From the IMG/VR virus record IMGVR_UViG_3300021426_000005: a stretch of 64,000 nt of DNA. One strand, written 5' to 3'. Numbering within the stretch: position 1 is the first letter of the stretch; every line of letters starts with the position of its first letter. Source of the stretch: a virus (taxonomy: Duplodnaviria; Caudoviricetes). Below the pieces are notes generated by a model. That model ran no database searches. It was given only the letters and a program-made list of their open reading frames with translations, and was not told where the DNA came from. Of the stretch, positions 21,169 to 54,307 are shown piece after piece. A program made the position numbers and the translations under genes.

Positions 21169-21169
21169 A

Positions 21170-22554: not shown

Positions 22555-22604
22555 ATAAATTTTATACTTGATTTTGGCAGTATACCTATCTTATACCAAA
22601 TCCG

Positions 22605-22976: not shown

Positions 22977-23198
22977 AAAAATGTCCCCAGAAGTTCTATA
23001 TACCTCTGGGAAATAAAAGAAGAGGTATTTATTTGGATGTCAGTTTCTGCTTTGTTTTGCTTGTGTGTAAGCAGGATCACACATTGGACAAGAAACCAAG
23101 TCATCACCTCAGTTTCCTGATACACCCCATGAAGGGGATTCACATGGGGTGTTATTTGGGGAAGATGTCCGCAGCTACTGACGCAGATTGCTGTGGAC

Positions 23199-23275
23199 TG
23201 GTGGAACATGAAGGACTTGAACCTTCGATCGTCCGGTTATGAGCCGGAAGCCTTAACCAGCTTGGCCAATGTTCC
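23199..23275 (-). tRNA. tRNA-Met or Ile2 (CAT)
   Basis: TCCGG-CTCATAA-CCGGA; CCA encoded. Confidence 0.9.
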
Positions 23276-30058: not shown

Positions 30059-30775
30059 TCAGATAAATATCAGACTGTCATCATAGAGAATTGAAGCCGC
30101 TACATCCCCAACGACACCGTCATTTATAGCAGTGATGAGCTTACCCTTGCGTGTTGCGTTGGGGAACACCTGCTGAATCTCATCCATATAATCAGCAGTC
30201 TTTCTGTTGAGCTGATATCCAGATTTTGTTTTCCCCTCATTGCTCTTACCTGTACCCTCATATACAGTTATGTATATTTTTCCACCAGGCTTTACAATCT
30301 TTCTCATGTTTTCAAGAACACCAAGTCTATTCTCAGGTTCTTTTATAACATTGAGAACATTTGAACAGGTAGCAGTATCAGCCCCACCGTGTTCTCTTAC
30401 AAGGTTGATGACTTCTCTGTTATGCTTCTTAGAGCGGTTGAATGGGTCAAGTACCATATTGATAACATCGTACTGTGTCAAATATTCTGCCACATTGTCA
30501 AACCGACCGCCACCGTAATCCACATTGACAGTTCCAGGTTCAAAGGTCACAAGATGAAATAATGCAGGAAGATTCTTAGCATTGATAGATGTATTTTCAG
30601 AAGTAAACTCCTGATCTATCTCCTTGATGGAATCCCACACATCTTCATACACATCATGTTCACCAGTATATTCCTCATAAGGATCTTCTTCTCTGGCACT
30701 ATATATCTTACGTTCGGGATAACAAGCTCTTGCAGAAGAAACGCTGTGTTTTCTACTTCTAACTGTAATTTTCAT
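30059..30775 (-). CDS. class I SAM methyltransferase with basic N-terminal tag
   Basis: VDYGGGRFD, DPFNR, SNVLNVIKE, ITVYEG. Confidence 0.8.
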   Translation of the reverse strand: MKITVRSRKHSVSSARACYPERKIYSAREEDPYEEYTGEHDVYEDVWDSIKEIDQEFTSENTSINAKNLPALFHLVTFEPGTVNVDYGGGRFDNVAEYLTQYDVINMVLDPFNRSKKHNREVINLVREHGGADTATCSNVLNVIKEPENRLGVLENMRKIVKPGGKIYITVYEGTGKSNEGKTKSGYQLNRKTADYMDEIQQVFPNATRKGKLITAINDGVVGDVAASILYDDSLIFI

Positions 30776-30801
30776 AGCAATTTCACCTCAAAAAATAAAA
30801 A

Positions 30802-30842
30802 ATCGGTAATAGAATTACTCTCTATTACCGATATATAAGGTT
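30802..30842 (-). promoter_or_regulatory. AACCTTATATA motif fused to a terminator-like hairpin
   Basis: AACCTTAT-ATCGGTAATAGA...TCTATTACCGAT-TTTTT. Confidence 0.7.
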
Positions 30843-30856
30843 ATTTTGCATTGTAA

Positions 30857-31414
30857 TTAGCGGTCTAATGGTAATCCATAGCGTTGTAACTGTACATTCC
30901 ACCGACCTATTCCATTACCATCTGAGGTTTCCTGCAAGGTATTAAGCCACTGCCTGCTCCAATTCCAGCTATCAGCTACATCAAAACCAGGATAATTGTT
31001 TAAGACCCACAGCCACTTATGATGGAATATATACTCTGAATGTCCGGTCTTGATTGTTCCGTCAGGTTTCACTGTAATATAGTCTCCGACCTTGGGCTCT
31101 CTTGCAGTATCAAAATCAGGCGATTCCTGAAATGATACATCACCGGTTTTAGGGGAATACCGTATGCAGTTATATTCATAGTCTGGATATTCTTCTGATA
31201 GCACTTGTTCTGCATATTCTAAAATATCAAGAGGAATTACATCTTCGGCATAATCCCTATGGAAATATATATCTCCGCCGATTTCTTTACCCACACCGTA
31301 TTTTGAACTTCGTTTTATAGGTGAGCCTTTATATGTTTTAAGGGTAGATCCTACTTCAGTCTGCTTATCATTATACTCCTGCGGAGTAAGTGCAGCTCTT
31401 ATATAACGTTTCAT
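30857..31414 (-). CDS. MKRYIR-tagged protein resembling the accessory domain of the phosphorothioation-associated methyltransferase
   Basis: GKEIGGDIYFH...SFQESPDFD...IFHHKWLWV..YPGF. Confidence 0.55.
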   Translation of the reverse strand: MKRYIRAALTPQEYNDKQTEVGSTLKTYKGSPIKRSSKYGVGKEIGGDIYFHRDYAEDVIPLDILEYAEQVLSEEYPDYEYNCIRYSPKTGDVSFQESPDFDTAREPKVGDYITVKPDGTIKTGHSEYIFHHKWLWVLNNYPGFDVADSWNWSRQWLNTLQETSDGNGIGRWNVQLQRYGLPLDR

Positions 31415-31451
31415 TCATACTACTCCTCGCCATGCGTGATGTGAGCCTACA

Positions 31452-31883
31452 TCAATGTGAGATTTCTTCAAGAGTAAGCGCTTCATTCTTTACCACATCT
31501 TTCTTTGATTGGATATATGCTTCGATGTGCTGGGTGATTATTTCTTCCAGATCAATACCGTTTTTATCAATTATGGCCTTGGTAGTAGTTAGCAGACTAT
31601 CAGTAACATTATTGATCACTGTACGGAGCACATCAGCTTGAGTTTCCTTATTCCAGGCATCATTCTCCTTCAGTACCGCTACCGTGGTCTGCTCACAGTG
31701 ATCTACACAAGTAGCAACGGTAGTTGTTATGTCAGAAATAACTGCCTTGATGTTCTCATTATCGGTTTTAGACTTCAGCCATGAAGCCAGAGCTGGAAGT
31801 AGCACTGTAGTGATCACAGCAGCTAATATGGTAAATACCAATTCAATTATGGATTTAATTACATATTCATTCATAATAATCAC
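31452..31883 (-). CDS. holin-like membrane protein
   Basis: N-terminal TM; C-terminal IEAYI, LL-H-holin-like pattern. Confidence 0.6.
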   Translation of the reverse strand: MIIMNEYVIKSIIELVFTILAAVITTVLLPALASWLKSKTDNENIKAVISDITTTVATCVDHCEQTTVAVLKENDAWNKETQADVLRTVINNVTDSLLTTTKAIIDKNGIDLEEIITQHIEAYIQSKKDVVKNEALTLEEISH

Positions 31884-32362
31884 TTCTCCGGATCGTATTC
31901 AGAAAAATAAGTATTCATAAGGTCCCTCACAAGAACATTGTTGTGGTGTGATGCCTTATCTATCGTATCATTGAAATAGAGCTTTCCTTGGCTATTGAAA
32001 CCACAAAGATGATATTCTCGGTATAGGATTATCAGCTGTTTCAGTTCTTCACTGTAATCTTCATTTCCGGCTTCAATAGCAAGCTGAATCCGTTTCGATT
32101 TCTCAAGGATCTGGGTCTGTAAACCTGTCCGCTGCGCTGATGATAACTTAGTCAATTGTTTTGTTATATCATCAATTGCGGCTTTTGTTTCAGATATGGT
32201 ATCCTTAGTTTCGGCAGTTGTCTGCATTACGTCCTTGATGTACTTTTTGCCGGGATTGATTTTCTCCCAATTATTCAGAACTGCGACTAAAACGGCCGAA
32301 ATCAGCGGTGCGATTACCGATATTAAAGCAAGCATAGTTTCTTTATTCATCGAAATCATCAT
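31880..32362 (-). CDS. membrane protein, possible holin/lysis accessory
   Basis: N-terminal TM plus coiled coil; Y..YH..G.N..G. Confidence 0.55.
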   Translation of the reverse strand: MMISMNKETMLALISVIAPLISAVLVAVLNNWEKINPGKKYIKDVMQTTAETKDTISETKAAIDDITKQLTKLSSAQRTGLQTQILEKSKRIQLAIEAGNEDYSEELKQLIILYREYHLCGFNSQGKLYFNDTIDKASHHNNVLVRDLMNTYFSEYDPEK

Positions 32363-32699
32363 CCTTTACGGACTTTATCAGCCATTTTAGGTACTGGTCG
32401 GTTTCTTTATCGCAAAGAGGACAGATACCGGTGATTTTTTCGACTTCCTGATCTGATTCAACCAATGCTGAAATAAACACTCCGTGACAGGAATCGCATT
32501 CCGCTATGAAGTGGTTAGCGATATTGTTATCAAGTTCGATGTCTATATCATCTTCTTCAACATCATCAATGGTGTCCTGGATGTCCTCAACAGAATCCGA
32601 TATATCATCTATAGTATCCACAATATCGTAATCCTCTTCATCAGCAGCTACAATTCTTGTAGATGATTTTATGGGCTTCCTATTCTTACTCAGCTTCAT
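32343..32699 (-). CDS. acidic zinc-ribbon protein with basic tag
   Basis: MKLSKNRKPIKSSTRIVAA, D/E-rich region, CDSC/CPLC. Confidence 0.7.
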   Translation of the reverse strand: MKLSKNRKPIKSSTRIVAADEEDYDIVDTIDDISDSVEDIQDTIDDVEEDDIDIELDNNIANHFIAECDSCHGVFISALVESDQEVEKITGICPLCDKETDQYLKWLIKSVKDDDFDE

Positions 32700-32753
32700 G
32701 ATGTTCAGCTCCTTACATAAAAATAACGGTAGCAGATGTTATTCTACTACCGT

Positions 32754-32764
32754 TATATAAGGTT
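32754..32764 (-). promoter_or_regulatory. putative late promoter AACCTTATATA
   Basis: Exact motif followed by a hairpin. Confidence 0.7.
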
Positions 32765-32834
32765 AAACATACTTCTTATGTAAAGCCCCTTATGGTACAA
32801 GTATAATACACATAGGGGCTGTTGCAAACTGTTT

Positions 32835-33305
32835 TTATTTGCTAAGAATTCTATTAACTTCTTTCTCAAGTTCGTCAATGGAATATACTTGTTTAGAGCG
32901 ATTTCCAGCCACATTCCTCACGATTACGGTACCGTCTTCTCTGATAAATACCTGCGCAGATGTCCACTTTTTAGGGTCAGATCGTAATAGATAGTTCTTA
33001 CCGTCCATAGTCCAGGCTTCTTTAACATCGTAGGGACTAGATTCCACCCAATCTACAGCAACATCATAAGTGAGTTCATTTGTAGGGGCGACATAATTAG
33101 GATTATTGATTCTGCGCTTGATAACTTTAGCGTTATAGCCATTGTCGATGTAGTCCCTAACATCTTGTTTTGCCAGCTTCAAGGATTCTGAAGATGTGTC
33201 ATCATATACAGCTATATCTTCCCAACCATAGCCAGGAACATATTCCTGTGAAACATACACTTCTATCTTTTTAGCATTTCGAGCGGATTTAATATACCGT
33301 TTCAT
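32835..33305 (-). CDS. MKRYIKS-tagged protein
   Basis: Start moved to ATG 33305 after an AGGAG RBS. Confidence 0.75.
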   Translation of the reverse strand: MKRYIKSARNAKKIEVYVSQEYVPGYGWEDIAVYDDTSSESLKLAKQDVRDYIDNGYNAKVIKRRINNPNYVAPTNELTYDVAVDWVESSPYDVKEAWTMDGKNYLLRSDPKKWTSAQVFIREDGTVIVRNVAGNRSKQVYSIDELEKEVNRILSK

Positions 33306-33383
33306 TGTAGTATTCACTCCTATAGAAAATATTAGTAACACCCTTATTACTGGAGTGTTGCTCTTTTCAGTTCTTCGAGGTTG

Positions 33384-33674
33384 TCAATAACGTGTAAGGA
33401 AGTAATTCAGGCAACCTGTAACGATTTCATCATAAGTATGGGTGAAATCAAAGTCGTCCTGAATGTACTCCCCACCATCTTTCACAAGCCATATGTCATA
33501 CCTATCATCAGGATCTGGTGGGATAAGTTTGAATCTTGCATAGACATCACCATCATCAAATCTGATGATGACCTCTCTATCTGAAACCTCAACACCGTAG
33601 CCGAGGTCCTTAATTTTTTGGTACTGCCAAGAATCTTCCCAATTCTCACGGGAAGATTTGATGTATCTTTTCAT
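33384..33674 (-). CDS. MKRYIKS-tagged acidic protein
   Basis: ORF with tag. Confidence 0.75.
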   Translation of the reverse strand: MKRYIKSSRENWEDSWQYQKIKDLGYGVEVSDREVIIRFDDGDVYARFKLIPPDPDDRYDIWLVKDGGEYIQDDFDFTHTYDEIVTGCLNYFLTRY

Positions 33675-33693
33675 AGAATTACCCCTTTCCCGC

Positions 33694-34008
33694 TCAAAGT
33701 TTTGCTACCGTAGCATCAGCAGAATTGCCGACATAGAGTTCGCCAGTATCTTTGTCTTCGATAAGGATACCAGAACGATAACCATTGGTATCATTCCAGG
33801 CAATGCCTATGATCTCATAGTTCATTTCCATAGGATCAAATGTACCAGCCATATCTTCTGCAATACCGGAAGCTACCATATCCCTGAGTTCTTTTCTGGT
33901 GAATAGGTACTTACCGGGGAATCTGCTTGTCTGCTTGCCGTATTTCTTTCCGTTAGGTGCTTTCCATGCGGAAGCCATTACGGAAGTGGATTTGATATAT
34001 CGTTTCAT
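33694..34008 (-). CDS. MKRYIKS-tagged protein
   Basis: ORF with tag. Confidence 0.75.
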   Translation of the reverse strand: MKRYIKSTSVMASAWKAPNGKKYGKQTSRFPGKYLFTRKELRDMVASGIAEDMAGTFDPMEMNYEIIGIAWNDTNGYRSGILIEDKDTGELYVGNSADATVAKL

Positions 34009-34907
34009 CAGTATTCCTCCTCCCCAGAAATTGCATTGATAGCACGCTCTACAACATCATTTATCCGATCATTGTTATCTATATCTGTAAGATATTCCGG
34101 TACCACAACATTAGCCCATTCTTCTGGATCAACATCAATACCGCGATCATCACATACACTTAATACCATATTCTGCATTAAGGCATCAAGGTTTTCGTAT
34201 AATAGTATGCTGTAATATTCAGACTGACACATCTGAAGCATCCTAACCATATCAGTTGTACCGTCAAGTAAGCCATTAACTGCCGCTTCTTCATATGCAC
34301 CGCTTTCCCAAATTTCATATGCAGATTTGAACAAACTATCATAATAAATATCTACTTCACTATTTGCTTGTTCTGCAATTGCATCTCCAATATATGCGTC
34401 ACTATCGGAGTAGTTATATACAAACCCGTCTAGGCAGTTTTCTGGGGCAAGATGTTCATACGGATAAAAGTCATATTCTGCGTTTAGTACGTTATTGGTT
34501 GCAGCCATGATAGTCTTCCTTCCTTTACGCCTTGTGGAAGCCTGTACATCGTCTTCGTACATGATTTCGTCCTCGTAGTAGTCTCTCAGTTCTTCGGCAA
34601 TAGCCTTCCTCGTAGCAGGACTGAGCATTGCAACTGATCCTCTACCAGAGCCGAATTCTTTGTCGTATCTTCTTACACCTTCGTCTGCAACATACTGCCA
34701 GAGCTTAACCGCAAGATCACGGTCATACTTGCCCTTCTTGTACTTACGCTTCAGATTTTCGATTGCCGGAGTGATACGCTCACGGTAAAGATCTCCATCA
34801 TTTGTGATAGTAAGCACCAGCTCATCTACATCTTCTCTGGAAACCTGAGATCTGTCTACGGCAGCCGCCTTGACCGGTCTGTTATAAGCACGGTTTATCT
34901 TTTTCAT
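34008..34907 (-). CDS. tagged two-domain protein with a C-terminal Ocr-like DNA mimic
   Basis: Start MKKINRAYNRPVKAA; linker VQASTRRKGRKTIMAA; C-domain DAIAEQANSEVDIYY...GLLDGTTDMVRMLQ. Confidence 0.7.
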   Translation of the reverse strand: MKKINRAYNRPVKAAAVDRSQVSREDVDELVLTITNDGDLYRERITPAIENLKRKYKKGKYDRDLAVKLWQYVADEGVRRYDKEFGSGRGSVAMLSPATRKAIAEELRDYYEDEIMYEDDVQASTRRKGRKTIMAATNNVLNAEYDFYPYEHLAPENCLDGFVYNYSDSDAYIGDAIAEQANSEVDIYYDSLFKSAYEIWESGAYEEAAVNGLLDGTTDMVRMLQMCQSEYYSILLYENLDALMQNMVLSVCDDRGIDVDPEEWANVVVPEYLTDIDNNDRINDVVERAINAISGEEEY

Positions 34908-34957
34908 AAGTAAGTTCCTCCTTAATAAAGTGGTTGTGTTATAGTTACCTATAACAC

Positions 34958-34968
34958 TATATAAGGTT
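34958..34968 (-). promoter_or_regulatory. putative late promoter AACCTTATATA
   Basis: Exact motif followed by hairpin GTGTTATAG/CTATAACAC. Confidence 0.7.
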
Positions 34969-34989
34969 ACAAGCCGTGTTTTTTGCATT

Positions 34990-35208
34990 TCACGATGTAG
35001 ATATCGGTCGCAAAGTTATATCATTTTTGCACATATCGCACTTGAATGTGTGGGGCTTTCTACCTAAAAGGTATAGGTTTTCTGTATGATATTCCAGACC
35101 GCAATGAGGGCATTTGTACACCGGATCATTAGAATCATCACTGACACATATTGTTTCTTTTGCATCAGGATCTATCGGCCAGTCTAACGGATTATAGAAA
35201 TGTAACAT
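34990..35208 (-). CDS. small zinc-ribbon protein
   Basis: CPHC, CDMC. Confidence 0.6.
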   Translation of the reverse strand: MLHFYNPLDWPIDPDAKETICVSDDSNDPVYKCPHCGLEYHTENLYLLGRKPHTFKCDMCKNDITLRPISTS

Positions 35209-35220
35209 ATCACCAGCCCC

Positions 35221-36105
35221 TTACAGTATTGAAAGCCGGTCCGCAGTCTGAAGCATAGTAACCATGGGATATTTTTCATTAGCATCCATGAGATCATGTT
35301 TCTGAGCATCAGATACATCATACTCATTCATGTGCCAGCGGATAGCTAAAGCCTGCTCTGTTGTCAGCTTGAATATCTTCATAGCAATGAACATGGAAGT
35401 TACACCATGACCGAATGGAAGTGAAGAACCTTTGTACTTATAAGCAAGCTGCTGTTCCCATACACCAGTTTCTTCATTCTTGACGTTCTTCTTGTAGGGC
35501 TGGTAGAAATCAATCTTACACCAATCATGGCAGATAGCAGCCAGAATAGCCTGAGCCAGATCAACTTCTGCATAAGTATCTATGGTGCTGAGTTCGATTA
35601 TCTTATCTACAACCTTGAGGGTGTGTTTTGCAAGACCACCTGGGCAGCAGTCATGATATATGGTACTTGCCGGAGCTATAAAGAAATCGGTACTTTCAAG
35701 CCACTGAATAGCTCTTGTTACATACTTCTTAGCTGTATCATCATTGCCATGGGTGGCATAACAGCAAGCTATGATATAGTTTTCCAGCTCCTCCTTGATA
35801 AGTTTGATCTGCTCCTGATTAGGATCATCTTTTGCTAACAGCTCCTGGCTAACCCTACCACCGATGTAAACTTCCGGTCTGAACATGGTAAACCGAGTGA
35901 AGTTCTCCATAACCTCCGGAATATCATCAGCGCCGAATGTTTCATCAGCAGGTATGAAATGAGGCTCATGCTGGTCATCAGGGACTATAGTACCTACTTT
36001 AGAATTATCGGAAGTCATCGTTACGGTCCAGGAATCTGATATTCCTATACGCTTGAACCAGTATGCGAATGATTCCTTAAAAGACATTGTATTGATGTTA
36101 AACAT
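35221..36105 (-). CDS. HD-domain hydrolase (YhaM-like)
   Basis: FFIAPAS..YH...GGLAKH, CHDWCK, GHG, AIRWHM, AD. Confidence 0.85.
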   Translation of the reverse strand: MFNINTMSFKESFAYWFKRIGISDSWTVTMTSDNSKVGTIVPDDQHEPHFIPADETFGADDIPEVMENFTRFTMFRPEVYIGGRVSQELLAKDDPNQEQIKLIKEELENYIIACCYATHGNDDTAKKYVTRAIQWLESTDFFIAPASTIYHDCCPGGLAKHTLKVVDKIIELSTIDTYAEVDLAQAILAAICHDWCKIDFYQPYKKNVKNEETGVWEQQLAYKYKGSSLPFGHGVTSMFIAMKIFKLTTEQALAIRWHMNEYDVSDAQKHDLMDANEKYPMVTMLQTADRLSIL

Positions 36106-36175
36106 AAAATCAACTCCTTCATATACATTAACGATTTATATAAACTAGCAATACCGTACTTGTATCTTCACTATA

Positions 36176-36204
36176 ATTATACAATACCGTACATAGTGTG
36201 TCAA
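36176..36204 (-). promoter_or_regulatory. SigA-type promoter
   Basis: TTGACA-17 nt-TATAAT, perfect consensus. Confidence 0.85.
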
Positions 36205-36258
36205 TTGGTATAACGACCAAAAAGAAACTGCCGATATTGTTCATATCGGCAGCAAATG

Positions 36259-36633
36259 TCAATCTTCGGTATATCTTGAAGGATCATACTCAAACTTCAC
36301 CAGATCTGTGATGAATTTTCCTATTTCCTCCCACTTACCCAAGAAGTAATGTATACTATCATAGTAATCCATATCCTCTTGTTTAAGCTCTGGGAATTTC
36401 AGATTTGGTGTGAAGTAGTAGATGCCATCATCGGGATCCTGATTGGTAGTGACCGTAATTTCTGGTAGATACTTTGCATCACTACCCTTAGCTTTTAGGG
36501 TTATCTGCAAATCATCAGATACTTCCATATCATAGTCGTTTCTGTCAGCAGACTTCCACAGTTCAAGAAATGGTCCGTCAATCAGAGCATCAGAACTCTG
36601 AGCTGCGGTTATAGGTCTTTTTGTAATTTTCAT
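36259..36633 (-). CDS. tagged acidic protein
   Basis: MKITKRPITAA. Confidence 0.72.
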   Translation of the reverse strand: MKITKRPITAAQSSDALIDGPFLELWKSADRNDYDMEVSDDLQITLKAKGSDAKYLPEITVTTNQDPDDGIYYFTPNLKFPELKQEDMDYYDSIHYFLGKWEEIGKFITDLVKFEYDPSRYTED

Positions 36634-36644
36634 TGTGTATCACC

Positions 36645-36974
36645 TCAATCAATTATAATCGGAATTCTGTTTACTACTGTGATATAGTTATCACTATATC
36701 CAGAAGCGTGTGTATAATATCTGTTATCGATCCAGTTGTTGCCGATAGCGTCATCCCAGCCATACTTTGCATATCTCAAAGCCCGCTGGAACATCTTATA
36801 AGACGGATCGTTTATCAGCTTATCTCTCCAACGCTCTGCGGTTTTTCTGTCCTTATATACGATCAGATTATATCGTGCAGAGTAATTGTCCTGGGTCATT
36901 ACACCGAACTCAGGCTGATCTTCTTCGTAAGCAAAAGCTACATCATAGTCATTTGCTTTTATGTATCTTTTCAT
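36645..36974 (-). CDS. MKRYIKA-tagged protein
   Basis: ORF with tag, GAGG RBS. Confidence 0.75.
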   Translation of the reverse strand: MKRYIKANDYDVAFAYEEDQPEFGVMTQDNYSARYNLIVYKDRKTAERWRDKLINDPSYKMFQRALRYAKYGWDDAIGNNWIDNRYYTHASGYSDNYITVVNRIPIIID

Positions 36975-37414
36975 AATAGCACCTCACTTAAACTTAGTGT
37001 CTGTCCCAGAAATTCCAGCCAGATCCATCCGATCCAGAATTTCTTCCTCTGTTAGCTTTAGCTTCAAAAGTGGATTGTGTATCTAACCACAATGGTTCAT
37101 CACAATATACACCCCTTGATGCTAGTTTCGTAGCAACATCATATGTACTGCCAGTTTTCAATTTATACCAAGGTGAATCTAACATAGCCCAATCAGTATC
37201 TGTTATTTTGCTAAAATAACAATTTCCGGCATCCCAATCCATACCTATGACTGCACCTATCGGAAACCTATTCAAAACAGCTTCGTATTCCTGGATGTCA
37301 GCATAAGTAGTCTTTGAATATCCAGGAAATACAGGTAAATTGTTTAATTCCGTCAGTATACTTTCTTCTTTAGAACACCGAATATATCTTTTCATAACAG
37401 CACCTCACTTAAAC
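36961..37414. repeat. 33-bp direct repeat (36961-36993 and 37382-37414) bracketing one gene
   Basis: atRtatcttttcataaYagcacctcacttaaac, 2 mismatches. Confidence 0.85.
36994..37395 (-). CDS. MKRYIRC-tagged protein
   Basis: ORF with tag. Confidence 0.75.
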   Translation of the reverse strand: MKRYIRCSKEESILTELNNLPVFPGYSKTTYADIQEYEAVLNRFPIGAVIGMDWDAGNCYFSKITDTDWAMLDSPWYKLKTGSTYDVATKLASRGVYCDEPLWLDTQSTFEAKANRGRNSGSDGSGWNFWDRH

Positions 37415-37890
37415 ATATTGTTATCCCAATCCCCGGTATAGTCAAGCATAGCCTTTCTACTGGGAATGGTTTGAATCTCATGATACTTTATTCCCCATTT
37501 GTTGATCTTCAATACGTTCAGGGAATGTTTCTTCTTCTCTTTAATAAGATAATCGATATCCCTTATGTCAAGAATGAAAGCTCTTTGATAAGAAGCGAAC
37601 AGAACTATGATCACCCCATAAGTACCTTCTATCTTCGACTTTTTCAGAAGATTGTCATACTGATAGTCGGTTATCATTGAGAAGTCAAATCTATCGGCAT
37701 AAGTGGCTTTGCTTTCGATGTAGAACATATTAGGTTTCTTATACAGCGTGAAGTCACAGATGTTCTTACTGCCTACAAATCCTGTCATTTGGTCCTTTAT
37801 TCTATCAAAAGAATACCCTTCTTCTGGTCGGTCTAACCAGGCTTCTATCTTAGCTTCTGCCTTTTTACCTAACAGATCATCTCTTACCAT
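37405..37890 (-). CDS. Holliday junction resolvase, RecU-like
   Basis: PD-(D/E)xK pattern: ICDF...FYIESKAT, Q...L. Confidence 0.75.
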   Translation of the reverse strand: MVRDDLLGKKAEAKIEAWLDRPEEGYSFDRIKDQMTGFVGSKNICDFTLYKKPNMFYIESKATYADRFDFSMITDYQYDNLLKKSKIEGTYGVIIVLFASYQRAFILDIRDIDYLIKEKKKHSLNVLKINKWGIKYHEIQTIPSRKAMLDYTGDWDNNMFK

Positions 37891-37969
37891 AGTTCCTATC
37901 TCCTATATATACATTAACGACCGGACAAATAAAGAAATGGTGAGTTCCCATTGTTTAGGAACTCACCAT

Positions 37970-37980
37970 TATATAAGGTT
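37970..37980 (-). promoter_or_regulatory. putative late promoter AACCTTATATA
   Basis: Exact motif followed by a 13-bp hairpin. Confidence 0.65.
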
Positions 37981-38042
37981 ATTTATTACATATTGTGATG
38001 AATAGGTTTGTGGTCAACTGTCTTTGAGTCAGAGAATGATTC

Positions 38043-38558
38043 CTAAAATCGCCCCGCGCTCCAATAGCCATCTATGGCTCTTTTAGCCGCCTTTAGTGTG
38101 GAATCGGTTTCCCACATAACTTCATCAGTTTTGGGATCTATTGTATACCACCGCTTATTTTCATAGTTATAGTGTATGTTGAATCCTCGATATTCATACA
38201 AATCTTCACCTATACGCTTGGCTGTAGGTCTTTCACCACAATAATACTTAATTGCTGCTCTGTCGGGATTCGATAACATATCAGATTCCAATAGGTATGA
38301 TAAGTTATCCTTCTCTGTAAAATTGAGCCTAATAATGCCTGTAAATGGGGTAGTTGATAAAGCCTTTACAGCCTTTTTATGTATAGCTAAAAACGGACCC
38401 TCTTCATAGCCCTCTAATATAACTCGCAACGTGTCAAGACGATTCCACCTTTTTATGAACTCATCTTTGGATAAGTTGGAATATATTACATCACCGTTCT
38501 TAAATGTATATTGGTATCTTGCGTTGGGCTTAGAATCGCTTTTTATGTAGCGCATCAT
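38043..38558 (-). CDS. MRYIKS-tagged protein
   Basis: ORF with tag; start MMRYIKS. Confidence 0.7.
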   Translation of the reverse strand: MMRYIKSDSKPNARYQYTFKNGDVIYSNLSKDEFIKRWNRLDTLRVILEGYEEGPFLAIHKKAVKALSTTPFTGIIRLNFTEKDNLSYLLESDMLSNPDRAAIKYYCGERPTAKRIGEDLYEYRGFNIHYNYENKRWYTIDPKTDEVMWETDSTLKAAKRAIDGYWSAGRF

Positions 38559-38663
38559 ATGATCGCTTCCTTTCATAATGATTATACCATAACAGCAGTA
38601 TATTGTCAGTAGTAAATATCAACAATATACTGCTGTTCATTTTAGTTATTAAGTTATCAGTTA

Positions 38664-39635
38664 TTATTCATATGCCTCTGCTTTGTCATTGTACTCAGCG
38701 ATAAGATCATTGACGTTACGGCTGTTTATCTGGCTATCGATTGCGGAAGCATCATCAAGCACCTGATTGAAGTAGCTTTCGCCGTACTTATCATATACAG
38801 CCTTAAACTCGGGAGAAAGCTGATTTACCATGTTGCGACCAACATTGTAAAGTGTATCAGCAATATCTACAAGAGCTTTATGCTCTGAATTGATGTATCC
38901 GTCCTCTACATCAGCCCAATCCCTTAGTATCAGGAGCATACTTACAAGATCATAGGGGATTTTTCCAGAATATGCAGCCTTTATAGCTTTACAACCTGAT
39001 CTTTTTCTACTACTTACTACAGCACCTTTACGTCTTGAAGATTTTACTGATTTCTTACCACATGATCCGGTAACAGACTCTTCTGATACAAGGTTATCCA
39101 GATATTCTAAAGTCTGGTATGCAAAATCAGCAGGGGTAAAGCAAGAACTCAGGTCATCGGTTTCTTGCCATTCATCATTGAAATAATCATCAGGGTATTC
39201 ACGAATAATATCTTCTGCTGTGATAGTATCGGTAGTATCACCATTCATATACCAATTGTAAGCATCTTCATAGCAATACTCCCGGAACTCATCCCAGGTC
39301 ATTATCTTATAGCAGTTATCCATCTGGATATTAGATGCCTTTACTGGTCTTGTGGAAGCCTTAACAAAGGGATCTTTGATAGATTCCGTTCTGCCGTAGT
39401 CATCGGGATTTTCGCCGTTCTTAGTGATGAGTACATCAATGTAGTTGTTGCCGTTAGAATTGAGAAATCCTAGCAGTTCATCTTCGGTCATAGATTTGAT
39501 TCCTGGACCAGCACTGCCCCAGGTTTTCCATGTATTATCTTCGTCCAGAACCCATAGGATATCGTCAGGTGCATATCCAGCTCTAATAGATCTGTGGTTA
39601 GCATTTTTATTGATTTTCTTACAATATATCTTCAT
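38664..39635 (-). CDS. tagged three-domain polyprotein
   Basis: Basic linkers VKASTRPVKAS and KKSVKSSRRKG...KAIKAA. Confidence 0.75.
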   Translation of the reverse strand: MKIYCKKINKNANHRSIRAGYAPDDILWVLDEDNTWKTWGSAGPGIKSMTEDELLGFLNSNGNNYIDVLITKNGENPDDYGRTESIKDPFVKASTRPVKASNIQMDNCYKIMTWDEFREYCYEDAYNWYMNGDTTDTITAEDIIREYPDDYFNDEWQETDDLSSCFTPADFAYQTLEYLDNLVSEESVTGSCGKKSVKSSRRKGAVVSSRKRSGCKAIKAAYSGKIPYDLVSMLLILRDWADVEDGYINSEHKALVDIADTLYNVGRNMVNQLSPEFKAVYDKYGESYFNQVLDDASAIDSQINSRNVNDLIAEYNDKAEAYE

Positions 39636-39652
39636 ATGCTATACCTCCAGTA

Positions 39653-40111
39653 TTAGTATACAGATAGTCCGAATGCTTCGGCTTCGTCTTCTGTCATCAT
39701 ATGTGTAATAGCACCAACATTAAGCCTTACCCAAAGATGTGCCGTGAATAATTCAAGTTCACCACGCTTCCAGGCTTCAAGCTCCTCCTGAGTTGGAATA
39801 TCATTGTCCGCATTTACTGTAGCATCTGTCTGCAATGAACCATCCAGAAATACATAGTCTTTGATGTCATCTGAAAAGATGAAGCTACTTTCAGCTATAT
39901 CATCGATTAGGTCCTGTGCAGTCCTAAATGAATCTGCAATTGTGAAAGTCCAAGAATTGACTTGTTCGCCTTCACCCTGTTCATAGCTATCAACCATAAC
40001 GTCAACATAGCAATCAGAAGGTACATATATTCTGAGGTTGCTTATGTCAGCAGCACCCATGATGGAGCTTGCTTTTACAGACTTCTTAGACTTATTGCAT
40101 TTAATCTTCAT
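39653..40111 (-). CDS. tagged acidic protein
   Basis: Start moved to MKIKCNKSKKSVKASSIMGAA. Confidence 0.7.
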   Translation of the reverse strand: MKIKCNKSKKSVKASSIMGAADISNLRIYVPSDCYVDVMVDSYEQGEGEQVNSWTFTIADSFRTAQDLIDDIAESSFIFSDDIKDYVFLDGSLQTDATVNADNDIPTQEELEAWKRGELELFTAHLWVRLNVGAITHMMTEDEAEAFGLSVY

Positions 40112-40388
40112 AATCTTCATCCCCCTCATTACGACCATACCACTCCCTGAAATCATACATACGGAACATATATGCCAGTGATTCTGCAAGTTCATCTGTG
40201 GAAAGTCCCTGAATGATCTCTGCATCTACAGTTTCCTTGCCAAGATAATCACAGGCGAATTCATATGCTTCCCATGCCTCTGACTCCTCTACGACCCAGC
40301 CGTAGCTTTCTGCTGACTTGATAGGTCTTCTACATCTGGGATTCTGTGAAGCGCTTACAGCTCTGCGTTTGTTTCTTATTATCTTCAT
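40101..40388 (-). CDS. tagged acidic protein
   Basis: MKIIRNKRRAVSAS...RRPIKSA. Confidence 0.72.
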   Translation of the reverse strand: MKIIRNKRRAVSASQNPRCRRPIKSAESYGWVVEESEAWEAYEFACDYLGKETVDAEIIQGLSTDELAESLAYMFRMYDFREWYGRNEGDEDYED

Positions 40389-40416
40389 AATATCAACACT
40401 CCTTATCTTATAATGC

Positions 40417-40929
40417 TTATCTTATAATGCTTGCAGCTTCAAGGAGATCCTGAAGATTATTGTATTCAGTCTTTTCTCCATAAGCATCTATAACATATCC
40501 TGAACCTAAGTCCACATTGATGTATGCTGTATCACCCATGCCGTTATCGTAATCAAATTCATCAAGTCTACCGTTATGGGGTGTTGCACCGATAAGGGGC
40601 AGTCCAGCACAAAGCAGTTCTCCGATGTCATATTCGTCCCAAGTATAAAGATCATCACAAAGACGGTTTGCATCTTCTGCCGTGTTGACTTCATAATTGA
40701 AAGGAAGCTCATACATATTACCTGCTGGATTCCACCAGACGTAGGCTTCGTGTGTATCATCATTGTATGTACAGCCGAAACCAAGCCACATATACTTATC
40801 CCACCAAGGTGTAGGTTCATTAGCATACTCAAAACCATTAGCCTCAAGTATTTTTATCACATTTGCATTGCTTCTGTCAGCCTCTCCCTTAATAGGGCGC
40901 TTATTAGATTTATTCATGTAAATCTTCAT
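40417..40929 (-). CDS. tagged acidic protein
   Basis: MKIYMNKSNKRPIKG. Confidence 0.72.
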   Translation of the reverse strand: MKIYMNKSNKRPIKGEADRSNANVIKILEANGFEYANEPTPWWDKYMWLGFGCTYNDDTHEAYVWWNPAGNMYELPFNYEVNTAEDANRLCDDLYTWDEYDIGELLCAGLPLIGATPHNGRLDEFDYDNGMGDTAYINVDLGSGYVIDAYGEKTEYNNLQDLLEAASIIR

Positions 40930-40941
40930 ATTGACACTCCT

Positions 40942-41229
40942 TTACAACATAAACGGTATTTCCAGAAGCCTTACTCTGAATACATCTGAAATGTCAGGTT
41001 TACCAAATTCTAAACCTTCGGTTTTGTCTATCAAGGCTTCTATCTCAGATATATCTTCGTAGTAAACTTCACCAAGGAAGCACTGACCATCCAGATCTAT
41101 CTGAGCTTCTTTTACACATTCCAGAGAGTTTAGCTGCTGGACGAAATCCAGCAGCAACTCTATTTCATCTTGTGGATAATCTGTGATCAGATCCGGATCC
41201 ACAAATAACTTGAACTTATTGTATTCCAT
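40942..41229 (-). CDS. acidic hypothetical protein
   Basis: ORF in cluster. Confidence 0.6.
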   Translation of the reverse strand: MEYNKFKLFVDPDLITDYPQDEIELLLDFVQQLNSLECVKEAQIDLDGQCFLGEVYYEDISEIEALIDKTEGLEFGKPDISDVFRVRLLEIPFML

Positions 41230-41234
41230 AAGCC

Positions 41235-43811
41235 TTAGATGTTTGTTATCGCATTGTAGATAGCCTCTGCGGCAGGCTTTGCAATACCCTTAACATACTC
41301 TTCGATAGCTTCCATATCGTAGTTGTTAGGATCAAGATTGCTTGAATTCCAGATAAGTTCAACCTTATCGATCTCATTACCCTTTACATAGATATAGAAT
41401 TCAAGTTCTCCGACTTCCTTACCACCACGGAAATCATAGTGGTAGGCATCAGGCAGAGCATATGATACAACGTCTATATCATCAGTATCGAATGTAGCAC
41501 TGATTGTATAAGTAACGCCTACATATGTGCTAGAAGCATAATACTCAAAGGTATCTTCCATGATAGTAGCGTATTCATCAACCTTAGCAAGCTCAGTTGT
41601 AGGAAGAACTTCACGCTCTGCGATTCTGTAGAGTTCATCTACCGTAGACTCAGATATTGCTTCTCCATTGGAATCGAAGCCATAACCGTAGTCTTCGTCT
41701 TCGCCATTGATAGGCTCAAGGTCTTCATAGGTAGCCGCTTCAACAGTCTTACCAGCTACACTCTTTACAGCGGCAGCCAGCTCCTCCGCATCATCATCTT
41801 CATCACCAAGAATAGGTGTGATCTCATCGGTAGGCTGAATATACACTACATCATCTTCGGTACCGTCATAGAATGACAGTGCTTCATCTGTAACTGCACA
41901 GCCGATACCTTCGTATCCGTCATCGTGAAGAATACCAAGGGTCATATCTGCAAGCATCTGATTGTACTCTGCTGCTGAGATATTTTCTGATGCACACTTT
42001 ACCGACTTAGCATCACTTCTTCTCACGGTAGAAGCTGTGATACCATTAGCAAGGAAACTACCTAATCCATTCTGGAAATCCGTATATGCCTTTATGCGGC
42101 TATCTTCATAGGCATCACGAATTTCAGATAGTCTTTCAAGCCATTCAGGTGTCAAATATTGATCATCAAAGTCAACCTGCGGTGCATAGATTTGTCTGTT
42201 ACCAGGGTAAAGCTGAATATAGAACTCATTTCCGTTTACAGCATTCTGATTGTATATGTAGTTTACCGGATCTTCATCAAGCGGATTAGCGAGATCTGCT
42301 TCAAGCATTTCCTCATACAAGTCATGATCCATAGCATCAAGGAAAAACCAAAAATCAGTTTCAACAGCTTCGGGACTCAAACCAGCATCTACTGACCAAT
42401 CATCCGGACCGTTGTACTTCACACTGTCAGTATTCAGCCAAGCACCACTACTGGGATCCTGAAGGAAAGCATCTACATATTCCAGCATATCGCTGTCTTC
42501 AAAGCCGTCGTACTCATAAGAATCATTCAGCATATCATTGACATCTTCTTCAGAAGACTCCCATGTATCTGCCTTTATAGCCTTACGTCTGATTTTCGAT
42601 GTACACTTCACTGACTTAGTACCAGTCACCTCTTCTGTAGCAGGGAAGATCTCAAAATCGAGAATACCGTCTCCATCTTCGTAGTTATTTTCATCATCTA
42701 CGAAATCATAGTATATAAGCTCACAGAATGTATAAGCTGTCTCAGAAGCATCACCATATTCATCATCGAACAGAGGGTCGCCGAACTGATTACACCACTC
42801 CTGGAATTTCAGTCGGGTCTCATCGTCCTGACAGAGTGGAAGTATAGCATCATACATATCAGCTCCTGGCTGACCTTCATATATCTTCTCGCCGTTGAAG
42901 TACATTACAATGTCTCCACCCTCATACCAAGCGGCAGTTACTTTAGTGCCGTTTCTTCTCTTGGTAGAAGCACCAATACCCATTGACTTCCAGACTTTAT
43001 CCCTGAAATCTGCGATTTCGTTTGTTACAACGAACTCACCATCAAAATTCTCAGCATAAACGTCAGGATCAATGTCTATCATATCACCGGTCTTGAAGTA
43101 AATGATATTAACATACAAGCCCTGCATGAGAAGTTCATGTGCATAACTTTCTACTTCTGACCATTCATCAGGTCCGAAATATCTATCTGCGTATGCACCG
43201 CTGCGATTTGAACCAAGGTATCCGGTTACTGCGAAACCGTTTTCATTCCACGAAGCCTTTACAGCCCTACGTCTTTTAGCTGACTTAGAAGCCTTAATAT
43301 TGAACTTTCTTTTATAAACAGACCCACCTATAGGGGATGCGTATTTACGTCCCTTAAAAGTGAATGTAGCCGTACCATCGAGAGCTGCTTGCTTTGCTTC
43401 TTCAGGAGTATCATAAATCTCTTTAGATATATCCCATGCAAATTCACCATTTTCAGCTTCATTCATAGATCTACGAATTCTATACCCATATGGACGTTTA
43501 ACTACCCGAAGCTGCGCCCCATCATCATCTTTGAGAACGATTTCAGCATCATTTTCACGAACAAGCTCCGCACCGGCTTTTACAGATTTCTTACCACAAG
43601 CAGATTCAACTACTTCGTAGCCCTTCTTCTTAGCCCAGGCTATCGCACCCTTTTTACTTTTCCAATTGTTAGGGGCAGAAGTAAGAACCTGATTATCCTC
43701 TGCATTTTTCAAACCGTAATACTCTCCGGATTGACCCTTATTGATAACATAAGGAGTGACCTTGAGGGTAGAACTGTTGGAAGAAGCAGTTACTTTGAAT
43801 TTTCTCATCAT
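41235..43811 (-). CDS. highly acidic multi-domain polyprotein with repeated basic linkers
   Basis: About 7 segments separated by K/R-rich [IV]-x-[AS]-[AS] linkers. Confidence 0.8.
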   Translation of the reverse strand: MMRKFKVTASSNSSTLKVTPYVINKGQSGEYYGLKNAEDNQVLTSAPNNWKSKKGAIAWAKKKGYEVVESACGKKSVKAGAELVRENDAEIVLKDDDGAQLRVVKRPYGYRIRRSMNEAENGEFAWDISKEIYDTPEEAKQAALDGTATFTFKGRKYASPIGGSVYKRKFNIKASKSAKRRRAVKASWNENGFAVTGYLGSNRSGAYADRYFGPDEWSEVESYAHELLMQGLYVNIIYFKTGDMIDIDPDVYAENFDGEFVVTNEIADFRDKVWKSMGIGASTKRRNGTKVTAAWYEGGDIVMYFNGEKIYEGQPGADMYDAILPLCQDDETRLKFQEWCNQFGDPLFDDEYGDASETAYTFCELIYYDFVDDENNYEDGDGILDFEIFPATEEVTGTKSVKCTSKIRRKAIKADTWESSEEDVNDMLNDSYEYDGFEDSDMLEYVDAFLQDPSSGAWLNTDSVKYNGPDDWSVDAGLSPEAVETDFWFFLDAMDHDLYEEMLEADLANPLDEDPVNYIYNQNAVNGNEFYIQLYPGNRQIYAPQVDFDDQYLTPEWLERLSEIRDAYEDSRIKAYTDFQNGLGSFLANGITASTVRRSDAKSVKCASENISAAEYNQMLADMTLGILHDDGYEGIGCAVTDEALSFYDGTEDDVVYIQPTDEITPILGDEDDDAEELAAAVKSVAGKTVEAATYEDLEPINGEDEDYGYGFDSNGEAISESTVDELYRIAEREVLPTTELAKVDEYATIMEDTFEYYASSTYVGVTYTISATFDTDDIDVVSYALPDAYHYDFRGGKEVGELEFYIYVKGNEIDKVELIWNSSNLDPNNYDMEAIEEYVKGIAKPAAEAIYNAITNI

Positions 43812-43819
43812 TAAACACC

Positions 43820-44035
43820 TCACTCAATTATTGCATTTGAAATGCTATTGTTAATGTTTACAAGATTCTGACTAAGCTCCAAAGCTATTGATAATGCCTC
43901 TTTGCCTTTATCAGTGCTGGTCCGTCCGAGCTTTTCAAGTCCTTCGATAATGTAATCGAAATCTGCTTCCAGATCCTTTATAGCATTGTCTAAGGCTTCA
44001 TTGCCCTCAGTAGCAGCTAATATCATTCGTTTCAT
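43820..44035 (-). CDS. tagged small helical protein
   Basis: Start moved to MKRMILAA. Confidence 0.65.
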   Translation of the reverse strand: MKRMILAATEGNEALDNAIKDLEADFDYIIEGLEKLGRTSTDKGKEALSIALELSQNLVNINNSISNAIIE

Positions 44036-44070: not shown

Positions 44071-44081
44071 TATATAAGGTT
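44071..44081 (-). promoter_or_regulatory. putative late promoter AACCTTATATA
   Basis: Exact motif heading the 38-44 kb tagged cluster. Confidence 0.7.
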
Positions 44082-52840: not shown

Positions 52841-54307
52841 TCAGAAAGTGCCGAGGATACGTCCGGATACAACGGAAGCGGGGTTTACAACCTCCATTGC
52901 AAGCATTGTGCCGTAACCCTGCTGTACGCTTGCGTTGGCAAGTGTTACGGGTGCAGTCTCTGTGAAAGGCATATATTCACCAAACAGAGCACTGTTTCTG
53001 CGAATGTCGTTGCTCTTGCAGCCCATTACCCACTTGTTAGGATCATAGTTAGGATCAACAATAACGTTGAACTGATCCAGAGTACCGAGCTTGTAAGGAC
53101 CTACAGTGTCTTCCAGAGAAGCAGACTTGAAGCCGTTGATCATCTTCATGTAAGAAGCTACGTTAGTACCAGCAATGATCCAGTTAGGTCTTGCGATATG
53201 TGTCTCATTGTAGATAGAAGAAGCTGCCTGGTCAAGTTTGAGCTTGAACATATTCAGGTAGTCAGAAGGCATTACTGCTGTCTGAACAGGTGCAGCATCC
53301 CAGTTGTACTGAGGCTTGTAAGAAGCAGCCTGAGCCAGCTTCTGGAAGCCCATTGTGTTGATCTCAGCGGTCATTTCGCTGAAAGCGGCTTCCTTGCTCA
53401 TATCAGCTACAGAAGCGCCGTATTCATTCTGTGCAGCGAAAGCACTGTATACAGACCAGTAGCAAGCCAGCTCCTTGACCTCAGCAACAAGGTTGATCTC
53501 GTCAAGCTGGAGGTAGCCCTTACCCATCTGAGCGCCGTACTCACCGTCAGCGTTAGGACCAACAGTCTCATTGTCGTACTGATATGTAGCCTTTACTGTG
53601 TCGCCAGCTGTAAGTGTTACTGCGGAGCTGAATGTGATAGCACCTGTGCTGTAGTCGATAGTACCAGCGGCAGCACCAGCAGCTGTTACGATATTGCCGG
53701 CACCGTCATCTGTGTAAGCAGTTGTTGTACCGCTGATGTCAGTTACGATTGTTACAGAGCCGGGAAGTACAGGGAGATATGCGAGGCTGCCTGTTGTGAA
53801 TGCACCAGCAGCAGACTCAACAATCTCATTCTTGACAACTCTGCCAGTGAAGTTGGGATCGATACCCTGACGGTTTACGAATGGGCTGCTGAGGATTGTT
53901 CCCTTCTGAGTCTCACCCTTGGTGTTCTCAGTGATGAACTTGAAGTAAGGGATCAGCTGCTGTCTGCTCTTCATTGCTACTGAACCGAAAACGTCAAGGA
54001 TCAGGAGCTTCTGAACGAACATAGGAAGCAGTTCAAGGAAGTCAGGTCTTGCAGCGATATTGGATGTATTTGTAGCACCCATGATGCTTGCTCTTGTACG
54101 GCAGTTGTTTGTGATCTGACGAGCGAACTGTGCCTGCTCAGGTGTCAGACCTGCGAAATTAGCCTTGATTGCTGTATTTGCTCTTCTTGCCTGTCTATTC
54201 TGAATACCAGATGTGATGCTGGTGCTTGCAGTTACAGGTCTACGTCCCATAGGGCGATTAGCCTTGGCAGAAATGCCGGTAGGACGGAATGTCTTCTTGA
54301 TTGCCAT
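52841..54307 (-). CDS. major capsid protein (T4 gp23-like)
   Basis: L.C.WS...A...YG.......SEMTAEIN, NWIIAG, G.L..F.V.VDP, GEYMP; follows the protease. Confidence 0.85.
   Translation of the reverse strand: MAIKKTFRPTGISAKANRPMGRRPVTASTSITSGIQNRQARRANTAIKANFAGLTPEQAQFARQITNNCRTRASIMGATNTSNIAARPDFLELLPMFVQKLLILDVFGSVAMKSRQQLIPYFKFITENTKGETQKGTILSSPFVNRQGIDPNFTGRVVKNEIVESAAGAFTTGSLAYLPVLPGSVTIVTDISGTTTAYTDDGAGNIVTAAGAAAGTIDYSTGAITFSSAVTLTAGDTVKATYQYDNETVGPNADGEYGAQMGKGYLQLDEINLVAEVKELACYWSVYSAFAAQNEYGASVADMSKEAAFSEMTAEINTMGFQKLAQAASYKPQYNWDAAPVQTAVMPSDYLNMFKLKLDQAASSIYNETHIARPNWIIAGTNVASYMKMINGFKSASLEDTVGPYKLGTLDQFNVIVDPNYDPNKWVMGCKSNDIRRNSALFGEYMPFTETAPVTLANASVQQGYGTMLAMEVVNPASVVSGRILGTF

Follow-up and report, generated by a model that had tools for sequence, protein, structure and literature searches.

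The 64,000-nucleotide stretch analysed here (IMG/VR record IMGVR_UViG_3300021426_000005, Caudoviricetes; hereafter the window) encodes a large set of unrelated proteins that share a short basic N-terminal leader. At 30,059-44,035, 17 of the 23 minus-strand genes open with a leader that ends in [IV]-x-[A/S/C/G]-[A/S], and the same motif recurs in the major capsid protein, in the prohead protease with its fused scaffold, and at the borders between modules of long polyproteins. By analogy with phage T4, the motif is probably both a prohead-protease site and an address tag for head-internal cargo. The motif, where it lies, its conservation and its modularity are shown by the sequences, and the parts of the interpretation built on them differ in strength: cleavage of the motif by the S77-family protease is likely, residence of the tagged proteins in the head is rather to be expected than not, and injection of the cargo with an anti-defence role is plausible while falling somewhat short of an even chance.

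A shared leader on unrelated proteins

The commonest form of the leader is MKRYI[KR][SA]x. Eight of the 17 leaders are the short M-K-R-Y-I-[KR]-[SAC]-x or a near variant, and the remainder span 10-25 residues and hold one or two copies of the motif (Table 1); every tagged gene has a Shine-Dalgarno-like GGAGG or GAGGTG upstream. The six untagged genes of the block encode two holin-like membrane proteins, a Zn-ribbon protein, an HD-domain protein, RecU and a 95-residue protein. Every N-terminus quoted in the original prediction was found at the gene start assigned to it, and the estimate of about 20 tagged proteins reduces to the 17 in the block: the two genes that start at 12221 and 11598 fit poorly, with P1/P1' residues unlike the consensus, and are uncertain enough to be left uncounted. 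This outlier pair (11221-12221) adjoins a cytosine methyltransferase and a serine recombinase.

A strict regular expression written from the leaders, [KR][PSYA][IV][KRTQS][ASCG][ASGNTDE], was scanned over six frames and matches 29 times on the minus strand vs twice on the plus strand. Twenty-five matches lie in real frames, all within the block, the capsid (RPVTAS) or the protease (RSVQAS), in agreement with the earlier claim that these two proteins carry the same motif; none falls in the window's remaining genes, roughly 50 in number. Eight matches are internal to a protein, all in the 857- and 323-residue proteins. The codons for M-K-R-Y-I-K vary from gene to gene, and therefore it is the peptide that is under selection; a DNA or RNA signal was rejected on this ground. 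Paralogy was likewise rejected, because the bodies without their leaders share no similarity (BLASTP, all E > 0.06), as had been claimed. A leader without function, its recurrence owed to chance, recent paralogy or a preference for A-rich codons after ATG at translation initiation, is very improbable. Highly expressed genes do often start with M-K and have an A-rich second codon, but Y4, I5 and the small residues at 7 and 8 are conserved despite variable codons, the motif also stands internally at module borders, the bodies are unrelated, and the out-of-frame and plus-strand controls are nearly empty.

In the family of the 185-residue protein the leader is retained by more than 100 homologues, with identities as low as about 55%. 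Position 7 is a small residue in 99% of them and position 8 is A/S in 92%, with K2 kept in 91%, Y4 in 76% and I/V5 in 92%; residues 9-13 are free to vary. An alignment-based AlphaFold2 model of this protein (predicted local distance difference test score, pLDDT, 93) places residues 1-6 outside the fold as a disordered segment. No fold match to the model was found in the PDB, the best Foldseek E being 0.07 (weak Ugi-like rows) and the best VIA-align Z 3.7. The homologue KVP40.0371 of Vibrio phage KVP40 (L010:1552-2514) is untagged and begins shortly before the conserved body, and a module of the 857-residue protein (module A) also occurs without the tag. Judged from these comparisons, the tag is a modular add-on. 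Homologues of the 185-residue body occur in 51 T4-like vibriophage records, untagged and fused to an extra C-terminal domain; the KVP40 protein opens M-S-I-I-F-E, which fits a T4-type I-x-E and is too short to weigh.

Motif copies in the capsid and the protease-scaffold

The first 72-100 residues differ in both length and sequence among 120 capsid homologues (63-100% identity), which keep little there besides copies of the motif: R-R-P-[IV]-T-A-[GS], T-S-I-T-[SA]-G and [IV]-M-[AG]-[SN]. Immediately before the conserved N-T-S-N-I-A-A-R-P-D-F-L-E there is always [IV]-[MT]-[GA]-A-T. The window capsid follows this plan, its propeptide of about 77 residues holding RRPVTAS, TSITSG, TAIKAN and ASIMG↓A (the arrow marks a predicted cleavage bond), the last directly before the conserved TNTSNIAARPDFLE. 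The capsid propeptide of LIS04, a cultured relative, is rich in T4-type [LI]-x-E motifs, and a MAFFT alignment with T4 gp23 and LIS04 sets the window S-I-M-G-A-T column for column against the LIS04 A-L-L-E-T-T. From this we infer a register of P3 = I/V, P1 = G/A/S and P1' = A/S, which would be the T4 rule with a small residue replacing Glu; in place of [L/I]-x-E the motif has S/A/G/C where the E-type relative has Glu.

The protease-scaffold fusion is 456 residues long, with the S77 domain at residues 26-166 and then a coiled-coil extension some 250 residues long, and carries motif copies at residues 9, 163, 189, 219, 297, 330, 355 and 423. The N-terminal copy is present in 97 of 121 homologues, the I-A-A-S that ends the S77 domain in 121/121, the scaffold V-T-A-S near residue 355 in 117/121 and the C-terminal copy in 121/121; Ser123 and His68 of the protease are invariant across the family. 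Such a pattern of sites is the one expected for a maturation protease that trims the capsid, itself and the scaffold. Sequence searches of the PDB gave no match for the capsid or the protease at E<=0.01, and a complex prediction of protease residues 1-215 with residues 1-60 of the 185-residue family scored 0.00, which counts neither way. The end of the scaffold also resembles the capsid: residues ~423-436 (nucleotides ~54390-54430) read ..L-V-E-A-S-M-N-T-C-N-I-A-A-Q-P, with a family consensus I-I-S-G-A-T-N-T, and capsid residues 75-88 (nucleotides ~54045-54085) read S-I-M-G-A-T-N-T-S-N-I-A-A-R-P. The C-terminal peptide of the scaffold may mimic the capsid N-arm.

The placement of these copies bears on the idea that the tag is read by some other machinery, such as a modifying enzyme, secretion or compartment import, or a chaperone, and that its likeness to capsid and scaffold segments is coincidental. 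This is improbable, since more than 100 homologues have the motif fixed both at the junction of the capsid propeptide and at many points of the scaffold, no candidate partner enzyme is seen in the window, and the leaders are not hydrophobic signal peptides.

Leaders and linkers in polyproteins

Seven internal motif copies (nucleotides 43589, 43268, 42947, 42617, 42584, 42008 and 41750) bound some 6-7 modules in the 857-residue protein, and the 323-residue protein has internal linkers RPVKAS (39350), KSVKSS (39053) and KAIKAA (38990). A full HMMER search found 229 relatives of the 857-residue protein, and its modules exist elsewhere as separate genes, of which the tagged ones carry the tag at the site of the window's linker. 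Stand-alone copies of module F mostly open MKKYIKAN, MKKYIKSA, MKRYIRSS or MVRYIKGN (some are untagged) at the place of ..GKTVEAAT in the window; copies of module B open MNIYSNKRRPVKAGA where the window has ..CGKKSVKAGA, and those of module D open MKIKYNGAIKASS or MKKYKRQPVKAS..RIIKAS. Module A is mostly untagged elsewhere. Relatives of 400-1500 residues contain 2-10 linkers of the form K-[SATP]-[IV]-K-[ASCG]-x each, for a chance expectation of about 0.06 per 1000 residues calculated from rough residue frequencies. Because tag and linker occupy homologous positions, leader and linker are interchangeable, as a cleavage site predicts.

The motif is spread through the phage family and lies among structural genes. 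Across 66 IMG/VR loci near related capsids, the strict motif occurs 2.17 times per 1000 residues within the first 30 residues of proteins vs 0.30 elsewhere. Up to nine tagged genes adjoin the capsid in single IMG/VR loci, and a 120-kb relative (G001) has three tagged genes between baseplate genes. The equivalence of leader and linker by itself requires only cleavage, and the motif might then be a processing site and nothing else, at which the prohead protease, or another one of phage or host origin, would act in the cytoplasm late in infection to release or activate modules from leaders and polyproteins that are never packaged. A 2026 preprint reportedly describes the proteolytic activation of a cyclic-oligonucleotide-based antiphage signalling system (CBASS) by phage proteases (PMC12991175). 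Nevertheless, a 7-residue leader lacks an obvious use if it is merely removed, the prohead proteases of this family are normally activated within the closed prohead (T4; PMC9026906), and the tagged genes of relatives are located among structural genes. We regard processing without packaging as unlikely.

Module C copies carry a second, E-type leader, M-[IV]-[KR]-K-L-x-I-[KED]-E-[SND], which heads runs of adjacent unrelated genes on metagenomic contigs with module C homologues (Table 1). Examples are MVRKLTIKES, MIKKLRIKES, MMKLHIEEN and MIKLIKES, all ending in a T4-type [LI]-x-E. Homologous cargo thus wears lineage-specific leaders, which is what would be predicted if each leader has to suit the protease of its own phage. 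Two viral-contig scans found no relatives for the capsid or protease of the second-leader lineage (L011-L017), whose metagenome contigs are too short, and co-change of leader and capsid motif was judged from one aligned capsid, that of the cultured E-type relative LIS04. One second-type contig also carries a Pfam match to Tad5 (anti-Thoeris) and an IS605 TnpB.

Candidate cargo and a proposed mechanism

Only 2 of the 17 tagged bodies offer a functional hint, and no function could be assigned to the other 15 from Pfam, PHROGs or NCBIfam. The 238-residue body matches Pfam Methyltransf_23 (E=1.1e-5, slightly short of the family cut-off). The 299-residue protein is ordered as leader, module 1, linker DVQAS..RKTIMAA↓T and an Ocr-like module (~residues 140-299). 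Residues 135-293 match phrog_2568, 'ocr-like anti-restriction' (E=1e-12), and the top PDB sequence match of residues 140-299 is T7 Ocr 1s7z (E=0.077, 77/117 residues). A double linker precedes the Ocr-like module, and therefore cleavage would release an Ocr-sized domain. A single-sequence AlphaFold2 model of the 299-residue protein has pLDDT 47, too poor for fold comparison.

In the mechanism that we propose, [K/R]-x-[I/V]-x-[A/S/G/C]↓[A/S] would be the recognition and cleavage site of the phage's own gp21/S77 protease, fused to the scaffold. The N-terminal leader of 7-25 residues would bring proteins into the prohead core, as the capsid-targeting sequence (CTS) of T4 does. After closure of the shell the protease would cut itself at its N-terminus, and would also cut the scaffold, the propeptide of the capsid and all leaders and linkers between modules. 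These cuts would free folded cargo modules in the head, including the Ocr-like DNA mimic, the methyltransferase-like protein and many acidic domains, and the freed modules would exit with the DNA at infection. The capsid-loading system put forward in the original prediction is partly supported by the modular tag, selection at the protein level, the motif at the capsid junction and in the protease-scaffold, its use as a polyprotein linker, and one Ocr-like module; for the diverse anti-defence payload envisaged there, the functional hints so far are one Ocr-like and one methyltransferase-like body.

The acidity of the bodies raises the question of whether the tagged proteins are filler of the prohead core or scaffold, like T4 gp22, gp67 and gp68, to be cut and expelled either ahead of DNA packaging or while it proceeds. 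Many bodies have low-complexity D/E runs and are very acidic, several predicted cut sites occur per protein, and a separate scaffold gene was not found apart from the protease fusion. Filler would not, however, be expected to contain recognisable folded domains (the Ocr-like and methyltransferase-like ones, and the confidently folded 185-residue protein), and the set of modules is highly variable and shuffled among relatives, unlike essential scaffold proteins. Such a role is in our judgement distinctly unlikely.

Several observations weigh against loading of cargo by a protease-clipped tag. All characterised phage proteases of the gp21 family cut after Glu (PMC5694885), so that a small P1 residue would be unprecedented for the family. 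The exact scissile bond is placed by analogy and by one low-identity alignment. Most tagged bodies are strongly acidic, which suits scaffold-like filler or DNA mimics, whereas the T4 internal proteins are basic. Untagged genes of early type lie within the block, for example the HD gene with its perfect sigma-70 promoter, and RecU and the tRNA cluster also follow the AACCTTATATA word described below. No close cultured relative was found, the best capsid matches being 24-27% identical.

Putative promoters and transcription of the tagged block

The word AACCTTATATA occurs in seven exact copies in the window, all on the minus strand (Table 1). It had been described as preceding most tagged genes and the capsid gene. 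What holds is that it heads operons containing tagged genes: it directly precedes only four of them (30775, 32699, 34907 and 44035) and RecU, and the remaining tagged genes lie downstream within AACCTTATATA-headed operons. The copy ascribed to the capsid gene sits about 410 nucleotides upstream of the capsid start, within the protease gene. The promoter argument is weaker than claimed, and at least one tagged gene (38555) also has a sigma-70-like promoter, at 38609-38581.

Three copies of AACCTTATATA are immediately followed by a strong hairpin and a T-run, one of them immediately upstream of the 30775 gene. If AACCTTATATA is a -10-like promoter element, transcripts would begin inside the 5' arm of the hairpin, so that those arriving from upstream would stop and new ones would read through, an overlapping terminator and promoter that would act as an insulator. 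The copy at 54718-54728, within the protease-scaffold gene (residues ~322-326), encodes N-L-I-Y. In 101 homologues N323, L324 and Y326 are invariant and I325 nearly so, in an otherwise variable coiled coil, and the DNA word is exact in relative L001. A putative promoter within the gene may constrain the protein sequence. Elsewhere in the block, a strong terminator (36253-36227) is followed by a perfect sigma-70 consensus (TTGACA-17-TATAAT, 36204-36176) before the untagged HD-domain and Zn-ribbon genes; the arrangement at 36176-36253 looks like a host-RNA-polymerase transcription unit nested in the tagged block.

Genome setting

The phage is uncultured, about 140 kb in length and from the gut, and a near-identical 141.8-kb contig is present in a metagenome. 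Nearly all genes of the window are on the minus strand; besides the features of Table 1 they include holin-like genes, a cell-wall hydrolase, helicases, methyltransferases and a serine recombinase. A megablast search of the block against 50,697 phage records gave no match. The best capsid matches are Bacillus, Listeria (LIS04) and Streptococcus phages, and the host group is apparently gut Firmicutes, the hints being names of metagenome-assembled genomes on a few database matches. A SNF2-family helicase gene (44241-46499, minus strand) contains an intein (Pfam Intein_splicing) that splits the ATP-binding motif (..DDMG-C...HN-CGKT..), and a tail-associated 699-residue protein of relative L002 (276-2375) appears to be intein-bearing too.

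Table 1. Tagged genes, signals and other features. Positions refer to the window unless a contig is named; minus-strand genes start at the second coordinate; an arrow marks the predicted cleavage bond.
Feature	Coordinates	Strand	Residues	Leader	Remark
Tagged block studied	30,059-44,035	-			
Tagged gene	30059..30775	-	238	MKITVRSRKHSVSSA	Methyltransferase-like body
Tagged gene	30857..31414	-	185	MKRYIRA↓A	
Tagged gene	32343..32699	-	118	MKLSKNRKPIKSSTRIVAA	Two motif copies; very acidic body, pI 4.05
Tagged gene	32835..33305	-	156	MKRYIKS↓A	
Tagged gene	33384..33674	-	96	MKRYIKS↓S	
Tagged gene	33694..34008	-	104	MKRYIKSTSVMASA	Two motif copies, second like capsid S-I-M-G-A
Tagged gene	34008..34907	-	299	MKKINRAYNRPVKA↓A	Two-module protein
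Tagged gene	36259..36633	-	124	MKITKRPITA↓A	
Tagged gene	36645..36974	-	109	MKRYIKA↓N	
Tagged gene	36994..37395	-	133	MKRYIRC↓S	
Tagged gene	38043..38555	-	170	MRYIKS↓D	
Tagged gene	38664..39635	-	323	..NHRSIRAG	Polyprotein
Tagged gene	39653..40111	-	152	MKIKCNKSKKSVKASSIMGAA	Start moved to 40111 by ribosome-binding-site spacing
Tagged gene	40101..40388	-	95	MKIIRNKRRAVSAS..RRPIKSA	Two motif copies
Tagged gene	40417..40929	-	170	MKIYMNKSNKRPIKG↓E	
Tagged gene	41235..43808	-	857	MRKFKVTAS	Polyprotein; net charge ~-96
Tagged gene	43820..44035	-	71	MKRMILA↓A	First gene after AACCTTATATA at 44071-44081
Doubtful outlier	start 11598	-	125	MKLYIKSM	Not counted
Doubtful outlier	start 12221	-	207	MKRYIRRIIS	Zeta-toxin-like P-loop protein (Pfam); not counted
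AACCTTATATA with hairpin/T-run	30802-30842, 32723-32764, 37936-37980	-			Intrinsic-terminator shape
AACCTTATATA, further copies	34958-34968, 44071-44081, 23854-23864	-			
tRNA cluster	20093-23275	-			Nine genes: Glu, Lys, Pro, four Leu, Gln, Met; preceded by AACCTTATATA at 23854-23864
Major capsid protein, gp23 family	52841..54307	-			Pfam Gp23, E=8e-19
Prohead protease (S77/gp21 family) and scaffold fusion	54324..55694	-	456		Pfam Peptidase_S77, E=2.6e-8
Tail and baseplate genes	56-64 kb				
Second-type leader runs	L015:4117-10609, L012:2741-6266, L014:68-3021, L011:1173-3609				Beside tail gene homologous to window 59045-60433

Implications

What is new here is a code with a small residue, the number of proteins that bear the tag, the motif's systematic service as a linker within polyproteins, and its occurrence in an uncultured phage family whose hosts are apparently gut Firmicutes; no paper turned up in literature searches for the leader strings. 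A wider proposal, to which we give less than even odds, is that an abundant family of uncultured phages of about 120-250 kb has its gp21-type prohead protease read a herpesvirus-like [I/V]-x-[A/S]↓[A/S] code, which would double as a universal address and cut mark for loading a large, freely shuffled arsenal of single-domain effectors and polyproteins into the capsid for co-injection. That arsenal would comprise the Ocr-like mimic, the methyltransferase-like protein and dozens of new folds. Most of the tagged proteins belong to no known family or fold. Should the tag indeed mark head cargo, it would provide a searchable label for proteins delivered with the DNA by widespread uncultured phages, and such proteins would be the most likely first-strike inhibitors of restriction, bacteriophage exclusion (BREX) and other defences. 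Virion-delivered anti-defence proteins could in that case be mined straight from metagenomes, with the tag as a sequence handle. It would also follow that gp21-family proteases are not limited to cutting after Glu and could share the Ala/Ser specificity of the herpesvirus protease assemblin, adding a functional link to the structural kinship of the two. Polyproteins with modules swapped at the putative cut sites suggest that cargo repertoires evolve by cassette shuffling, and the short leader, like the T4 CTS before it, could serve to bring foreign proteins into capsids.

Comparison with known systems

The capsid-targeting sequence of T4 was reportedly described by Mullaney and Black in 1996. 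The T4 leader, whose opening we take to be MKTYQEFIAE, shares an M-K-x-Y opening with the leaders of the window. As is established for T4, the CTS is carried by IPI, IPII, IPIII and Alt and is removed by the prohead protease gp21; the first 10 residues of IPIII are enough for packaging and are removed by gp21, which cuts core proteins many times (PMC9026906). T4 thus has a 10-residue CTS, a 7-residue Alt propeptide, the N-terminal LIE-9 of gp21 and variable internal-protein loci (PMC9026906). Both systems pair a gp23-type capsid with a gp21/S77-type protease, and in both a short leader (7-19 residues in T4) on unrelated proteins ends in the protease motif (by our reading, in the window), which is found also in the capsid propeptide and the protease N-terminus. 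In both, the set of cargo differs between relatives and includes one restriction-countering member, IPI* in T4 and, by sequence, the Ocr-like module here. The differences are considerable. P1 is small (S/A/G/C) and followed by A/S here, not Glu; the leader is basic where that of T4 is acidic, and the bodies are mostly acidic where the T4 internal proteins are basic. The window has 17 tagged genes in one block vs four in T4, motif-joined multi-module polyproteins and a protease fused to its scaffold, and its system is known from sequence alone.

The jumbo phages phiKZ, 201phi2-1 and SPN3US likewise have many head-internal and ejection proteins, which a gp21-like protease (gp175/gp245) cuts at a three-residue motif, S/A-x-E (PMC5694885, PMC10052503). 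In these phages there are several sites per propeptide and the protease processes itself, as proposed here. Unlike the system of the window, these phages, which possess an inner body, cut after Glu, and their propeptides often exceed 100 residues with no uniform short tag; here Glu is missing from the motif and the leaders measure 7-25 residues.

The predicted site has the form of those of herpesvirus assemblin (S21), which cuts at (V/L/I)-x-A↓S, for example at YLQA-T and VQA-S in pseudorabies virus (PrV; PMC4498786). The match to [I/V]-x-[A/S]↓[A/S] is at the level of the motif, the bond here being a predicted one. Here too the protease is N-terminal to a scaffold, with conserved motif copies at the boundary (~163) and near the C-terminus (~423) that would correspond to a release-type and a maturation-type site. 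One relative has a leader MKKYVKA↓S, and the release site of human cytomegalovirus is presumably YVKA↓S. The only Pfam match is nonetheless to S77, not S21, and the virus infects bacteria; we know of no short leader shared by herpesvirus proteins that loads unrelated cargo. A passage in PMC5694885 cites gp21 as reported to have the assemblin fold.

Head-stored anti-restriction proteins delivered with the DNA are also found in phage P1, whose Dar system comprises DarA, DarB, Hdf, Ddr and Ulx (PMC9024508, PMC12810830). DarB has methyltransferase motifs, and a tagged methyltransferase-like protein occurs here. The Dar proteins differ in being incorporated hierarchically through specific proteins, with no common protease-clipped tag, and there is no homology between the two sets. 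Lastly, the C-terminal module of the 299-residue protein matches the Ocr-like PHROG and has T7 Ocr (gp0.3) as its best PDB sequence match. Ocr is a free early protein in T7, whereas its counterpart here stands behind a leader, a first module and a double linker.

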